From Lachnospiraceae bacterium (GTDB lineage Bacteria; Pseudomonadota; Alphaproteobacteria; RF32; CAG-239): a DNA stretch of 64,000 nt. Below the pieces are notes generated by a model. That model ran no database searches. It had not been told where the DNA came from and saw only the letters and a list, made by a program, of their open reading frames with translations. The position numbers and the translations under genes were made by a program. The first letter of the stretch is position 1; each line of letters opens with the position of its first letter. The stretch spans positions 42,211-106,210 of the forward strand of contig CAVBCV010000002.1 in assembly GCA_963594125.1 (NCBI GenBank), given 5' to 3'. Of the stretch, positions 50,265 to 58,899 are shown piece after piece.

Positions 50265-51020
50265 ATGAATAATAAATTACTCTTATCCGCCTGCCTGTTG
50301 TGTTTGGGTATGGCCGGCTGTGTGCGCTATAATTCAGCTTACACGGCTCAATGCAACGGTCCTGAGTGCCCGATGGACGTGTATATTGATGAAACATACG
50401 CCGCCATTCCGCCGGAGGGATATATCTGCCAAAATGCGGCAGACCCCAATATGTGTCCGAACGACCCGTATGTGAACTACACCCGCACCGCCGCCGATTT
50501 TAGAGAATACGGCGAAAGAACTCCCCGCGACAGATTAGTCTCGCAGGCCGGCGCAGGCAATAACCTCTCGGCGTCTATTCCCCCGTCAGTTGAAGATGAG
50601 GTTATTGAGTATGAAGAACAAGCAGGCGTTGCCGCTGAACCTGAAGTGCCAGAAGAAGAAAAAGTTGCTCCTGAGGACATAAAAGTTGATGAAACTATTG
50701 TTGCCGATACAGAAAATGATTCTGATGAAAATTCAGATGATGTGGAAGATCCGGTTCAGGATTGGCTTGCTGAAGAAGGTCAAAACCTTAAAGCTTTGCT
50801 TACTGAATGGAGCGAGCAGTCTGGCTGGCGCTTGGTTTGGAACACCAACCGCAATTATGTTTTGAACGCCGGAGCTATGTTTAGAGGACGCTTTGCCGAT
50901 GTCAGCTCGGCTTTAATCAGAGCTTTCGCCCGCGCCCGTCCGGCTCCGATTGCAACATTTTATAAAGGAAACCGCGTATTAGTCGTTGAAACGATGGAGG
51001 ATGAAAATGCGTATGAATAA
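50265..51020 (+). CDS. lipoprotein with TcpQ/PilL-like C-terminal domain
   Basis: MNNKLLLSACLLCLGMAGC lipobox. Acidic middle region. C-terminal LKALLTEWSEQSGWRLVWNTNRNYVLNAGAMFRGRFADVSSALIRAF resembles TcpQ/PilL-type pilotin-like domains that accompany type IVb secretins. Translationally coupled to the secretin gene. Confidence 0.5.
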   Translation: MNNKLLLSACLLCLGMAGCVRYNSAYTAQCNGPECPMDVYIDETYAAIPPEGYICQNAADPNMCPNDPYVNYTRTAADFREYGERTPRDRLVSQAGAGNNLSASIPPSVEDEVIEYEEQAGVAAEPEVPEEEKVAPEDIKVDETIVADTENDSDENSDDVEDPVQDWLAEEGQNLKALLTEWSEQSGWRLVWNTNRNYVLNAGAMFRGRFADVSSALIRAFARARPAPIATFYKGNRVLVVETMEDENAYE

Positions 51021-52626
51021 GTTTTTTAATTTAGCTCTTGGTACGGCAGTTGCCGCTTTGGTTGCGGCGTGCTCCGTTTCAACCGACCTGGACGCAACTT
51101 TGGACCGCGAAGTTGAAAACACCGTGGCTTTGAAAGAAAAAGCCAAGGCTCCGGTTACTCCGGCGGTTACTGATGTTATCAGAGTTAATGACGATATTTG
51201 GCTCGGCGACACCAGTGAAGTTGAGTATGAGGGCGATCCGGTTCCGAGTTATTTGGAAACTCCGGACGGCGTTACCTTAATCAGCAACCGCCCGATTACG
51301 TTATATGAAATCGGCGATATGCTGAACAAAATTACTTCACTTTCAGTCAGATACGATCCGACTTTGGAAGAAACTTCAAAGCAGCAGGCTGACGGCAACG
51401 CGCCTAACTTGGAATCTATCGGCGCGCAGTGGACCGACAGCACCAAAATGCTTGTTTCATACAAAGGTCCTTTGAGCGGCTTGCTTGATGAAGTTTGCAA
51501 CCGTTTCGGCATTTGGTGGAAATATGAAAAGAAACAAATTTATTTTTATAAATTTATCACCAAAACCTTTGTGTTATACACCTTGCCTACCAAACCGACC
51601 TTGTCGGTTAACGTCGGCGGCTCGTCTACCGACGGCAGCGCGGGTTCATCATCTGTTTCACTCAGCAACACCGCAAATATTGACTTGTGGGCTAATATTG
51701 AATCATCAATTAAATCAATGATTAGCAATGAGGCTCAGTTGACGATGGATCAGTCAAACGGCACCATCACTTTGACCGGCACTCCGACCGATATTCGCAA
51801 AGTGGCAAAATTTGTTAATGAACAAAACATCCGCCTTTCACGGCAAGTTGCCATCAGCGTTAAGGTTTTGCAGGTTAATGTTTCAGATTCAGACCAATAT
51901 GGTCTTAACCTTTCCGCCGCGTTTAAGGGCAACAACCACATCACTGATTTAGGTTTGGCAAGTCCGGGCGGTTTGGGCGCTGAGGTTACCAACAACCTGT
52001 CTATGACAATTTTATCCGGTCAGTGGACTTTGGCAGGCGCTATTCAAGCCCTTTCAGAGCAAGGCACCACCAACTTAATCACCAGTGGTACGGTTACAAC
52101 CTTGAACAACAAACCGGCTCCTATTCAGGTGGTTAAAACTCAGAACTATATTTCTGAAATTACTAAAACCAACTCCGGCAGCGACGGCAGCTATTATGAC
52201 CTTTCCACCACTACGGAGGAAATTGAAACCGGCTTTACGCTTGATGTTTTGCCGCGTATTTTGGAGCACGGCCGCTTGATGTTGATGTTTAACCTAACCT
52301 TGTCTGACCTTATTGAACTTGAAAGAGTTGATTTGGGCAGCGGCTCAAGCACCGAGGGCGAAACCAGCGGTCAATACATTCAAAACCCGATTATTGAAAC
52401 CCGCGGCTTTACGCAGGAAGTTGCCTTGAAATCAGGCGAAACCTTAATCTTGAGCGGTTATGAACGTGTTGAAAACACCGCTAAAAAAACCGGCGTAGGT
52501 TCGGCTGAAAACTCACTCTTGGGCGGCACCGCAACGGCTGAAAAAACTCGCAGTATCTTGGTTATTATGTTAACCCCTGTGGTTTTGGACTCCCCGCTTG
52601 TGCCCGAATCCAGAATGAAATACTAA
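51007..52626 (+). CDS. pilN: type IVb pilus secretin lipoprotein (PilN/TcpC-like)
   Basis: Lipobox ALVAAC. Secretin N-domain (ITLTGTPTDIRKVAKFVNEQNIRLSRQVAISVKVLQVNVSD) and C-terminal secretin domain (IIETRGFTQEVALKSGETLILSGYERVENT...RSILVIMLTPVVL). The exact start (51001/51007/51013) is uncertain. Confidence 0.8.
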   Translation: MRMNKFFNLALGTAVAALVAACSVSTDLDATLDREVENTVALKEKAKAPVTPAVTDVIRVNDDIWLGDTSEVEYEGDPVPSYLETPDGVTLISNRPITLYEIGDMLNKITSLSVRYDPTLEETSKQQADGNAPNLESIGAQWTDSTKMLVSYKGPLSGLLDEVCNRFGIWWKYEKKQIYFYKFITKTFVLYTLPTKPTLSVNVGGSSTDGSAGSSSVSLSNTANIDLWANIESSIKSMISNEAQLTMDQSNGTITLTGTPTDIRKVAKFVNEQNIRLSRQVAISVKVLQVNVSDSDQYGLNLSAAFKGNNHITDLGLASPGGLGAEVTNNLSMTILSGQWTLAGAIQALSEQGTTNLITSGTVTTLNNKPAPIQVVKTQNYISEITKTNSGSDGSYYDLSTTTEEIETGFTLDVLPRILEHGRLMLMFNLTLSDLIELERVDLGSGSSTEGETSGQYIQNPIIETRGFTQEVALKSGETLILSGYERVENTAKKTGVGSAENSLLGGTATAEKTRSILVIMLTPVVLDSPLVPESRMKY

Positions 52627-52644
52627 CAGTAAAGGAATAATACC

Positions 52645-57185: not shown

Positions 57186-58307
57186 ATGGCAGAAAAGAAA
57201 AAAACAGCCTCTTTCAATAAAGCTATGCGCTCGCTGAACTCTATTGAAGTTTATTATGCGAAAATGATTTGTAACTTTTCAAACGAAACGCGTTTGAAAA
57301 TATATCGTAAATTGGCAGCCTTAATGCGTAACCGATTTTCATTGATGGACGCTTTGGATATGCTGCATGACGGTATTACCAACGGCGGTAAAAATCCGAG
57401 CGAACCGATGGCTATTGCTTTAGCGAGCTGGGGTAAAGCCCTGCAAAACGGTTTGCCGTTTTCAGACGCTTTAAAAGGTTGGGCGCCAAGCCGCGAACGA
57501 TTGATGCTTTCAGTAGGTGACGTTTCAGACTTGGAAAGCGCTTTGCTGAACTTGATTAAAGTGACTGAAGGTTCCACAAAAATGATTAGACCGATTGTCG
57601 GCGCGGTTTCATATCCGTCATTCTTGTTCATGATGGCAATTTTGATTATTTACGGTATCGGCGCTTACATGGTGCCGCCGATGATTGACGCCGCTCCGTC
57701 CGTGCGTTGGGTCGGCACCGCCGCCACATTGGTTGATATTTCAGAATGGATTAGAGAAAACTGGTTGGTTGCCTTTATTACCTTCCCGATTGTGATGCTT
57801 GTGGTTTATGCCACCATCGGTGTTTGGACAGGTCCAATCAGAGCCGCGATTGATAATATTCCGCCATGGTCATTGTACAAGGTGTTTATCGGTATTACCT
57901 GGCTGTTGGCGTTGTCTGCTTTGGTTAAAGGCGGCGTGCCGGTTTCAACCGCGCTATCATCACTGCGCCGCGATTCAAACGCTTACTTAAAAGAGCGTAT
58001 TGATAAAACTTTGGCATTTATTAAAAATGGTGATAACTTAGGTCAGGCTCTAATGAAAACCGGATTAAACTTTCCGGATAAAGAAATTATTGCCGACTTA
58101 AAAATTTATTCTGAGTTGGATAACTTTGAAGAGGCTTTGGAAAAACTCGCCGATGACTGGTTGGAAGAATCCGCATATATGATTGAGCAAAAGGCTTCAT
58201 TGTTGAACATGGCGGCATTGCTTGCGGTTGCGGGCGTTATCGCTTGGGCGGTATTCGGCGTATTTGAAATGCAAGACCAAATTACCAGCGCTATGGGCGG
58301 AGGTTAA
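57186..58307 (+). CDS. pilR: type IV pilus platform protein (GspF/PilC family, PilR-like)
   Basis: 373 aa with three TM segments and two cytoplasmic helical domains, the architecture of GspF/PilC/TadB platforms. Directly follows the ATPase. Confidence 0.8.
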   Translation: MAEKKKTASFNKAMRSLNSIEVYYAKMICNFSNETRLKIYRKLAALMRNRFSLMDALDMLHDGITNGGKNPSEPMAIALASWGKALQNGLPFSDALKGWAPSRERLMLSVGDVSDLESALLNLIKVTEGSTKMIRPIVGAVSYPSFLFMMAILIIYGIGAYMVPPMIDAAPSVRWVGTAATLVDISEWIRENWLVAFITFPIVMLVVYATIGVWTGPIRAAIDNIPPWSLYKVFIGITWLLALSALVKGGVPVSTALSSLRRDSNAYLKERIDKTLAFIKNGDNLGQALMKTGLNFPDKEIIADLKIYSELDNFEEALEKLADDWLEESAYMIEQKASLLNMAALLAVAGVIAWAVFGVFEMQDQITSAMGGG

Positions 58308-58308
58308 T

Positions 58309-58899
58309 ATGCTAAATAAATTTAAGCAAAAATGCCGCGATATGCGGGCAATGATTAAAGCTTCACCGCGAGAGGGAATTTTATTATTTGCCTTGGCTGT
58401 CGGCGCTTTGTTAATATTACTGCTTGTGTGGCTTATGCCTGATAACAATAATCAGATTGTTATCGCCAAGCAGGAAATTAATGAACTTGGTAATATGGTG
58501 CGCAATCATTACAAAGTGCGCCCCGATTACTGGGGATTAAGCACCGAAAATGCGATTAAAAACAATCTGGTGCCTGAAAAAATGGTGCGCGGCAATAAAA
58601 TTGTCAGCGCTCTGGGCAAAGAAATTAATGTCGGGCAAGATGTCAACGGCACTATGATTATGCCGGGCGGCAAGCGCTTTATAATCAGCATTACCAACAT
58701 CAGCAAGTCAGTATGCGTTGCCATGCTGCCGGATAACTCAACACAAGTGGAAAATCCGGCTTTAGCCGCGGTTAACCTGATTTCAGGCGATAAGGTTTTC
58801 GGCTTTGAATGGGGCGGACAGCTGCCTTTGCCGATAACGCCGGAGTTGGCTGATAAGTATTGTCAAAATAACAACACTATCAGTTGGACTTTTGAATAA
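58309..58899 (+). CDS. PilS-like type IVb prepilin (23-aa leader ending in Gly, non-canonical mature N-terminus)
   Basis: Start ATG 58309 after RBS ggagg. MLNKFKQKCRDMRAMIKASPREG|ILLFALAVGALLILLLVWL: basic 23-residue leader ending in Gly, then a hydrophobic helix with no Glu+5. About 150-aa globular domain with two C-terminal Cys (possible D-region disulfide). Sits in the pilS position after pilR. Confidence 0.5.
   Translation: MLNKFKQKCRDMRAMIKASPREGILLFALAVGALLILLLVWLMPDNNNQIVIAKQEINELGNMVRNHYKVRPDYWGLSTENAIKNNLVPEKMVRGNKIVSALGKEINVGQDVNGTMIMPGGKRFIISITNISKSVCVAMLPDNSTQVENPALAAVNLISGDKVFGFEWGGQLPLPITPELADKYCQNNNTISWTFE

Follow-up and report, generated by a model that had tools for sequence, protein, structure and literature searches.

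A type IVb pilus gene cluster of the bundle-forming pilus class beside a VirB-type secretion system in an uncultured gut lineage of Alphaproteobacteria

The 64-kb stretch of DNA analysed here (contig CAVBCV010000002.1, hereafter the window) carries a cluster of type IVb pilus (T4bP) genes next to a VirB-type type IV secretion system (T4SS). By comparison of its proteins with those of reference systems we assign this cluster, with high confidence, to the class of the bundle-forming pilus (BFP). This label should replace that of an R64/PAPI-1/SPI-7-like cluster, under which a sequence-only reading had described the genes. The assignment is made because the proteins show a two-fold BLASTP preference for BFP-type systems, the extension ATPase falls into a BFP clade with 85% bootstrap support, a BfpF-like second ATPase is present and the accessory genes of R64 are missing. 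For the locus as a whole, the explanation towards which the evidence leans is a chromosomal and vertically maintained BFP-class pilus, which may cooperate with the VirB system.

Gene cluster and class of the pilus

The plus strand from 48390 to 59832 holds nine closely packed genes. The seven-gene core within 50238-58899, in which the genes abut or overlap in an operon-like manner, encodes a TcpQ/PilL-like lipoprotein, a secretin, PilO, a PilP-like protein, an ATPase, a platform protein and a pilin-like protein. Family profiles recovered all seven genes with the content, order and coordinates (50265-58899) that had been read from the sequence before, and the system was found to reach beyond them, with an OmpA-fold gene upstream and a canonical prepilin and a BfpF-like ATPase downstream:

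48390-50177, plus strand: OmpA-fold protein, 595 aa, first plus-strand gene of the divergent pair
50238-51020 (alternative start 50265), plus strand: BfpG/PilL/TcpQ-like lipoprotein (PF10671 TcpQ, 60 bits, 2e-16; lipobox MAGC)
50986-52626 (alternative start 51007), plus strand: PilN/BfpB-family lipoprotein secretin (TIGR02520, 293.7 bits, cutoff 287.65; lipobox VAAC)
52645-53937, plus strand: PilO/BfpC-type bitopic assembly protein (PAP_PilO PF06864, 71 bits, 1e-19)
53927-55495, plus strand: extended PilP-like protein, 522 aa (TIGR03021, 22 bits, residues 352-454, below cutoff)
55510-57174, plus strand: extension ATPase, BfpD/PilQ class (T2SSE, 221 bits)
57186-58307, plus strand: inner-membrane platform, BfpE/PilR class (two T2SSF domains in a single protein)
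58309-58899, plus strand: pilin paralogue at the PilS position (Bundlin 25.1 bits, PilS 22.4 bits, both above the Pfam cutoffs)
59035-59832, plus strand: canonical bundlin-like prepilin (class III signal ending ...CRG/RSMVEMLGVLAIIGVLSVGAIAGY, with the slash at the cleavage site; G-x4-E, then a hydrophobic helix)
59904-60863, minus strand: BfpF-like PilT-family ATPase, 319 aa (T2SSE 113 bits; pilT_fam 113 bits, below cutoff)

The open reading frames (ORFs) of the window were profiled with Pfam and NCBIfam. For linkage and conservation, window proteins were searched by tblastn against 80 related species-level loci, each with 10-kb flanks. Matching stretches numbered 250 in collections of metagenome-assembled genomes (MAGs) from the gut of human, ruminant, deer, rabbit and chicken, and related clusters are present in no fewer than 80 genomes at species level. 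The secretin passes TIGR02520, the NCBI equivalog 'PilN family type IVB pilus formation outer membrane protein', and scores 114, 52 and 36 bits in the MshL, GspD and PilQ models, respectively. The extension ATPase, whose homologues number in the thousands, carries a Walker A motif (GPTGSGKS at 293) and a tetracysteine motif (CPYC at 436 and CKFC at 474), and its best plasmid matches are T4bP ATPases, annotated bfpD included, with 35-37% identity over ~92% of the length. At the lipoprotein position, tblastn with BfpG matched 75 related loci (at most 72 bits) and with R64 PilL 55 loci (at most 48 bits). The 522-aa protein combines a signal sequence, a Pro/Ala-rich region, a coiled coil and a C-terminal PilP-like domain; a family hidden Markov model (HMM) of this C-terminus scores 21.7 bits with R64 PilP and 8.5 bits with BfpU.

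Components were compared with reference systems by BLASTP bit scores. The BFP of enteropathogenic Escherichia coli (EPEC; pMAR2) and two BFP-like E. coli plasmid clusters were used together with R64 (NC_005014), Longus, the Etp type II secretion system (T2SS) of pO157, E. coli HofB/C, clusters from Bosea and Methylorubrum, a Vibrio parahaemolyticus T4bP adjoining dot/icm genes and a Ralstonia T2SS-like cluster. PAPI-1 and SPI-7 were not among them, and the R64-type comparison rests on R64 itself. The scores were as follows:

Extension ATPase: BfpD 297, BFP-like E. coli 313-321, Bosea/Methylorubrum 324; R64 PilQ 160, GspE 166, HofB 150, LngH 135
Platform: BfpE 197, BFP-like E. coli 201-218, Bosea/Methylorubrum 209-234 (Bosea 234); R64 PilR 110, GspF 37, HofC 38, LngI 86
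PilO: BfpC 73, BFP-like E. coli 68-84, Bosea/Methylorubrum 101-129 (Bosea 129); R64 PilO 35
Secretin: BfpB 180, BFP-like E. coli 171-173, Bosea/Methylorubrum 221-230; R64 PilN 173, EtpD 35, LngD 64

ATPase, PilO and platform score about two-fold higher with BFP-type systems than with R64, and the secretin is equidistant from BfpB and PilN. In neighbour-joining trees the ATPase, the platform and the secretin each fall into a T4b clade with 100% bootstrap support against T2SS (GspE/F/D) and type IVa pili (HofB/C), and the type IVb call of the sequence-only reading, which a grouping with T2SS or Tad would have contradicted, is upheld. In the comparison of secretin and ATPase with R64, BFP and similar systems, which that reading had proposed, the ATPase shares a clade of 85% bootstrap support with BFP, Bosea and Methylorubrum, from which R64 PilQ is excluded, and these trees do not resolve the placement of secretin and platform relative to R64.

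Of the components named in the TXSScan definition of T4bP (PMC6668835), the extension ATPase, the platform, a T4b-type secretin and a pilin with class III signal were found. The same is true for the order of the BFP class, BfpG-B-C-U-D-E, with a BfpF-type ATPase and a bundlin-type pilin, only that the BfpF-like gene is convergent and not co-oriented. BLASTP of the BfpF-like ATPase gave 152 bits with BfpF and 179 bits with the second ATPase of the Bosea cluster; in the tree it belongs to the BfpF-type ATPases (75-80% bootstrap), with DotB/TraJ and the VirB11 of the window placed elsewhere, and we regard it as a putative retraction motor. Of 63 related loci, 39 have a homologue with at least 60% identity within 10 kb, and both orientations occur. 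On the side of R64, tblastn with PilM, PilT (lytic transglycosylase), PilU and PilV gave no match in the window or the 80 loci, matching Pfam/NCBIfam domains were not found either, and shufflon and rci are absent from the cluster. Likewise, BfpP, BfpH, BfpI/J/K and BfpL had no tblastn match in the window or the 80 loci.

Two other identities were tried and rejected. A T2SS is opposed by profile scores far below the cutoffs (GspE 223 against 630, GspF 57 against 424, GspD 52 against 351), by the position outside the T2SS branch and by the lack of GspC/L/M domains and of a pseudopilin set in the window. Tad/Flp (type IVc) is excluded by architecture (a single platform protein with two T2SSF domains, a PilN-family secretin) and HMM scores, not by a tree; the sole Tad-related NCBIfam match, TIGR03819 (TadA-family), reaches 49 bits against a cutoff of 373.

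Genomic setting and relation to the VirB system

All of the nearest homologues of the extension ATPase, with 72-100% identity, belong to MAGs of uncultured gut organisms designated 'Alphaproteobacteria bacterium' (human, Hadza, ruminant, deer, rabbit, chicken). Among the nearest genomes are Proteobacteria bacterium CAG:495 and Candidatus Scatocola, which is listed by NCBI under Rhodospirillales, Rhodospirillaceae incertae sedis. Judged by its relatives, which are gut MAGs placed by NCBI in Rhodospirillales, the host is not 'Rickettsiales-like', as had been supposed; the duplicated VirB2 and VirB8, which are real, probably prompted that description. We also observed the pilus/T4SS locus in bins labelled '[Ruminococcus] gnavus' or 'Bacteroidaceae bacterium' (L039, L046, L054; 76-78% ATPase identity), which probably reflects mis-binning or mislabelling in public records.

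The rest of the window consists of housekeeping genes (cdsA, uppS, frr, pyrH, plsY, dprA, topA, mlaA/C, gpsA, lemA and a UvrD/PD-(D/E)XK helicase). No integrase, relaxase, VirD4 (type IV coupling protein, T4CP) or element boundary was found in it; an origin as an integrative and conjugative element was rejected because integrase, relaxase and T4CP were not found in the window. The direct adjacency of the pilus cluster to a VirB-type T4SS had been described correctly, and the T4SS is located divergently upstream, separated from the pilus core by one plus-strand gene (48390-50177) and a 382-bp intergenic region:

48007 down to 22581, minus strand: divergent VirB-type T4SS (Pfam and NCBIfam matches, all below equivalog cutoffs)

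This cluster comprises three VirB2/TrbC paralogues (one of 394 aa), a VirB3-position ORF, VirB4, two VirB8, a VirB9-SPOR protein, VirB10, VirB11 and unassigned ORFs; large ORFs of 1352, 521 and 438 aa gave no family match. VirB10 has 1435 aa, of which ~1100 aa in front of the TrbI domain are beta-flower repeats, and is preceded by a separate beta-flower/DUF3659 protein of 1371 aa.

The seven core genes are intact and in the same order in 71 of the 80 related genomes, the others being cut by contig ends, and such an arrangement is therefore far beyond chance. Conservation is highest for the motors (ATPase 72-99% identity) and lowest for the pilin-like proteins (26-81%), which fits a functional surface-exposed system with purifying selection on the motors. 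Of the 66 loci with sufficient flanking sequence, 55 have VirB2/3/4 upstream in divergent orientation, and in two others these genes are located downstream. Since VirB genes are thus found within 10 kb in ~85% of related species, nearly all of them divergently upstream, cooperation with the T4SS appears the most likely role of the pilus.

A working model can be drawn from these parts. By homology and architecture, the outer membrane holds the lipoprotein secretin (PilN/BfpB) with its TcpQ/BfpG-type partner, and PilO/BfpC together with the PilP-like protein connects the secretin to the inner membrane. Prepilins of the G/RSMVEML type would be cleaved by an A24 peptidase whose gene would lie at another site of the genome, polymerised through the secretin by the BfpD-like zinc-finger ATPase and the BfpE-like platform, and the fibre would be retracted by the separately transcribed BfpF-like ATPase. 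The pilin paralogue at the PilS position may remain membrane-bound, with a part in assembly or regulation, and the OmpA-fold protein may tie the apparatus to the peptidoglycan. Such a retractile pilus could catch a partner cell or surface and draw the partner into the close contact needed by the VirB system, following the same logic as the IncI thin pilus in a domesticated and apparently non-conjugative form.

Several points weigh against this model. That the pilus works together with the T4SS has as its basis linkage and analogy only, and we put it forward tentatively. In ~10 of the 66 loci (~15%) the pilus cluster has no T4SS within 10 kb, so the two can be separated. No VirD4/T4CP or relaxase was found in the 64-kb window, and the absence of a T4CP bears on the activity of the T4SS. 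A prepilin peptidase was found neither in the window nor within 10 kb of the cluster in the 80 relatives: A24 and SLT domains were lacking in the window ORFs scanned with Pfam/NCBIfam, and neither the window nor the related loci with their flanks were matched in tblastn by any of the references, five A24 peptidases and three lytic transglycosylases, which agrees with what the sequence-only reading had noted for both enzymes in the window. The T4bP prepilin peptidase pilD is a 'loner' in TXSScan and may lie away from the locus (PMC6668835). Minor pilins (BfpI/J/K, PilV) were not recognisable. The assignment of the 53927-55495 protein to PilP is weak in homology and comes partly from gene position. 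The leader of the canonical prepilin (59035-59832) is atypical with 66 aa from the conserved ATG; an internal ATG would shorten it to 10 aa, and leaders of this family in other species typically have 11-13 aa. Finally, the trees were calculated by neighbour-joining with 200 bootstraps from 9-12 taxa, among which Tad, TCP and PAPI-1 were not represented.

The alternative which survives best, and which we still consider unlikely, is a pilus that serves colonisation or auto-aggregation on its own, in the manner of BFP or the toxin-coregulated pilus (TCP); the adjacency to the T4SS would then mean shared ancestry or regulation only. The BFP-class homology including the retraction ATPase, the gut habitat and the loci without a nearby T4SS would all suit such a pilus. 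However, the VirB linkage is kept in most species at ATPase identities down to ~72%, it survives rearrangement on the other side, where PilT orientation and pilin copy number vary, and the end of the T4SS remote from the pilus cluster, that of VirB11, has a pilin paralogue as well.

It appears improbable that the cluster encodes a conjugative thin pilus of the R64/PAPI-1 type, stabilising mating pairs on behalf of a conjugative T4SS which an integrated mobile element would carry. The gene order L-N-O-P-Q-R-S is that of R64, the secretin passes the PilN equivalog cutoff and is as near to R64 PilN as to BfpB, and IncI2 plasmids are a case of a T4bP serving VirB-like conjugation. Against this stand the scores of ATPase, platform and PilO, which are about half with R64, the position of R64 PilQ outside the clade of the window ATPase, and the absence of PilM, PilV, shufflon, rci, PilU and lytic transglycosylase. 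Moreover, relaxase, T4CP and integrase are missing from the 64-kb window, the cluster is flanked by housekeeping genes and its chromosomal position is stable across many species. Some T4bP systems export soluble protein, as TCP and CFA/III do with TcpF and CofJ, and dprA lies within the window, but protein secretion (in this or a T2SS-like manner) or DNA uptake has hardly any probability here, as there is no GspC/L/M or pseudopilin set, the core lies outside the T2SS clade, no candidate gene for a secreted substrate was recognised in the operon, and dprA is 45 kb away and near-universal in bacteria.

The domesticated, BFP-class pilus beside its VirB partner could be extended to a wider and rather doubtful picture, in which the ~39-kb block from 21.8 to 60.9 kb forms a single, integrated apparatus for cell contact and determines how a small-genome gut lineage lives. 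If so, a retractile BFP-class pilus of variable, multi-copy bundlin-like pilins would harpoon a bacterial or eukaryotic partner and reel it onto a derived VirB system, which, with lectin-like beta-flower repeats fused to VirB10, would deliver effectors. The lineage would then be an epibiont, a predator or an obligate contact-dependent symbiont, and the uncleavable pilin paralogue a membrane-resident checkpoint of pilus assembly.

Pilins, upstream elements and accessory genes

The gene at the PilS position had been described as prepilin-like. Its pilin-like head was confirmed, a conserved cleavage motif was not, and the canonical prepilin is the next gene (59035-59832), outside the coordinates considered before. 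The PilS-position protein has a bundlin-like head and a hydrophobic N-terminal helix. It aligns by phmmer with PDB entry 1ZWT (BfpA; E 0.02, residues 52-189, both Cys aligned), its family HMM scores 42 bits with BfpA, and hhalign relates this family to that of the G/RSMVEML pilins with 99.5% probability. An alignment of 76 orthologues showed no conserved Gly(-1) before the hydrophobic segment and no conserved acidic residue at +5; the commonest residue is K (19%) in the column of G23 of the window protein and G (28%) in the +5 column. Since Gly(-1) and Glu(+5) are not conserved and TIGR02532 is not matched, the protein is probably not a substrate of the prepilin peptidase and represents an uncleaved, membrane-anchored pilin-like protein. 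The gene as major pilin was rejected for the lack of conservation of these two residues across the orthologues.

The canonical prepilin scores 15.1 bits with TIGR02532 (cutoff 16.3). It belongs to the G/RSMVEML family, of which the window and the 80 loci hold 46 unique members, typically with one to three of them immediately following the PilS-position gene. With the HMM of this family, BfpA reaches 55.5 bits and R64 PilS 40 bits, and other T4b major pilins are matched as well. Two further members and two elements flanking the prepilin gene were found in the window:

11419-12054, plus strand: prepilin paralogue with a 6-aa leader (MYTQSG/RSMVEML...)
21821-22588, plus strand: prepilin paralogue (G/RSMVEML...), abutting the VirB11 end of the T4SS
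58940-59034, plus strand: pilin upstream block and stem-loop, which buries Shine-Dalgarno sequence and AUG
59852-59891, no strand assigned: bidirectional terminator-like hairpin (17-bp stem and subsequent T-run, predicted for both strands), which separates the prepilin gene from the convergent ATPase gene

All three window prepilins (11343-12054, 21745-22588 and 58959-59832 with their upstream parts) have an identical mature N-terminus (RSMVEMLGVLAIIGVLSVGAI...), and all three are preceded by the same 40-nt block, GGACTCGTAAATATTGCAAAAAAAAAACGCGAGCTAAAAT, at 100% identity, where chance would give 0 matches. Their 5' hairpins have stems of 19-20 bp and folding energies of -25 to -30 kcal/mol (z -7.7 to -10.5). 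Rfam gave no match in the window at gathering thresholds, and the pilin 5' hairpin is accordingly not a described RNA family. Because the upstream block is identical and the stem-loop shared, the sequences suggest a common transcriptional and translational control of the three pilin genes.

Several side observations concern these pilin genes. Two prepilin leaders contain hairpin pairs (21862-21943 and 59115-59196) with 9-bp stems and CTTGA/TCAAG loops, 59 nt apart. They are in frame and stop-free, and the leader grows from 6 aa to 48 and 66 aa. The window holds only these four copies of the hairpin (shuffle mean 0.22), and palindromes of the same type with different compensating stems form intergenic arrays in relatives (L001:10629-10710, L061:15514-15623, L071:15016-15430); by sequence, the hairpins resemble a REP/RPE-like element that has entered the gene in frame. 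Close strains differ in their pilin locus. In the 99%-identical genome MGYG-HGUT-00610 (L029:13384-13600 compared with window 58900-59832) the pilin upstream block is followed by an apparent pilin 3' fragment, and the prepilin gene adjoining the cluster appears to be deleted; in locus L001 the conserved pilin block stands on both sides of a pilin gene. The paralogue at 11419-12054 follows a zeta-toxin gene (8481-9437) and a RhuM-family gene (10291-11280) in a low-GC stretch at 8000-12100 (35-38% against ~44%), possibly an accessory islet of small size.

In the divergent intergenic region (48008-48389), blocks with at least 80% conservation across seven genomes were observed, e.g. TTATACA.TTATAGAATA and TGTAACAAAAAATTCATA, which are candidates for shared regulatory sites. 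In the OmpA-fold protein encoded next to it (48390-50177), a long acidic linker of low complexity joins an N-terminal membrane anchor to a C-terminal domain with OmpA/MotB/Pal fold; the protein gave no Pfam or NCBIfam match. The C-terminal 133 aa were modelled with AlphaFold2 (AF2) from 26 homologues (mean pLDDT 78, core above 90), and Foldseek against PDB returned the peptidoglycan-binding domains of MotB, Pal and OprF (E ~1e-5, probability 1.0). Judged from this model, the product is a putative peptidoglycan anchor which could serve the pilus or the T4SS. A homologue of this 595-aa ORF was found by tblastn upstream of PilL in nearly all related loci that reach that far. The domain family has 69 database matches, and the few named ones are proteins of Alphaproteobacteria MAGs. 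One homologue is located on an NCBI contig of 1,855,266 bp, presumably a near-complete genome of the lineage.

Significance and comparison with known systems

No paper dealing with the biology of the pilus or of the T4SS in this lineage was found in a full-text literature search. What appears to be new is a BFP-class cluster which is fixed beside a VirB system in the chromosome across an uncultured gut lineage, with no conjugation genes in view. A strongly conserved 39-kb block of T4SS and pilus genes, in a genome of probably less than 2 Mb, would make cell-contact biology central to the gut life of these organisms; the contig with the related protein has 1.86 Mb. The cluster extends the BFP class from enteric pathogens to commensal Alphaproteobacteria. 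It also suggests a coupling in which the T4bP-T4SS partnership known from IncI plasmids can be chromosomally fixed without visible conjugation genes. The PilS-position paralogue, finally, offers a natural case of a pilin-like protein that is without cleavage motif and is nevertheless kept, in 76 distinct orthologues from 81 sequences.

The pairing of a T4bP with a P-type T4SS, which had been regarded as unfamiliar in Rickettsiales-like genomes, is already known from IncI2 (MPF_T) plasmids. An IncI2 mcr-1 plasmid typed MPF_T carries VirB3, VirB4, VirB9, VirB10, VirB11 and a T4CP (VirD4) interleaved with pilL/M and pilN-pilV, and mating pairs are stabilised by the IncI2 T4bP in the gut as well as in broth (PMC10654706). 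We rejected a recent origin of the pairing from an IncI2-like source, as the IncI2 ATPase (29.9% identity, 172 bits) is no nearer to that of the window than is the one of R64. R64 (pilI-pilV) and IncI2 have in common with the window the L-N-O-P-Q-R-S order, the PilN-family secretin and the T4SS linkage, whereas their ATPase, platform and PilO are distant (160, 110 and 35 bits). Moreover, the pil region of R64 has no retraction ATPase gene, unlike the window with its BfpF-like one, and these systems reside on conjugative plasmids with relaxase and T4CP, whereas the window cluster occupies a conserved chromosomal site with neither in view.

The best overall matches are the T4bP clusters of Bosea sp. 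RAC05 pBSY19_1 and of the Methylorubrum extorquens AM1 megaplasmid, with the order TcpQ, secretin, PilO2, unassigned gene, ATPase, platform and second ATPase. Unlike the window cluster they are plasmid-borne; the identity is ~28-37%, and none of them has been studied experimentally. The Methylorubrum replicon is typed MPF_I, and the Bosea cluster has a PilV-type adhesin.

The BFP of EPEC (bfpA-L on pMAR2/EAF plasmids) differs from the window cluster in several features. The window cluster is chromosomal and alphaproteobacterial, the BFP is on a plasmid, and the identity is 31-36%. In BFP the pilin gene comes first, in the window after the platform gene; the PilP-position protein has 522 aa in the window and BfpU 164 aa; the retraction ATPase gene is on the opposite strand, unlike bfpF, which is annotated as retraction ATPase; and BfpP, BfpH, BfpI/J/K and BfpL have no counterpart. 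The extra uncleavable pilin paralogue, the upstream OmpA-fold gene and the linkage to a VirB T4SS, in turn, are features of the window and not of BFP. Nevertheless, BFP and the BFP-like E. coli clusters are the nearest experimentally characterised relatives for ATPase, PilO, second ATPase and pilin. The order BfpG-B-C-U-D-E(-F) matches PilL-N-O-P-Q-R(-PilT-like) of the window, and both systems have a lipoprotein secretin, a tetracysteine extension ATPase, a second ATPase of the PilT family and a bundlin-like pilin with a disulphide pair.

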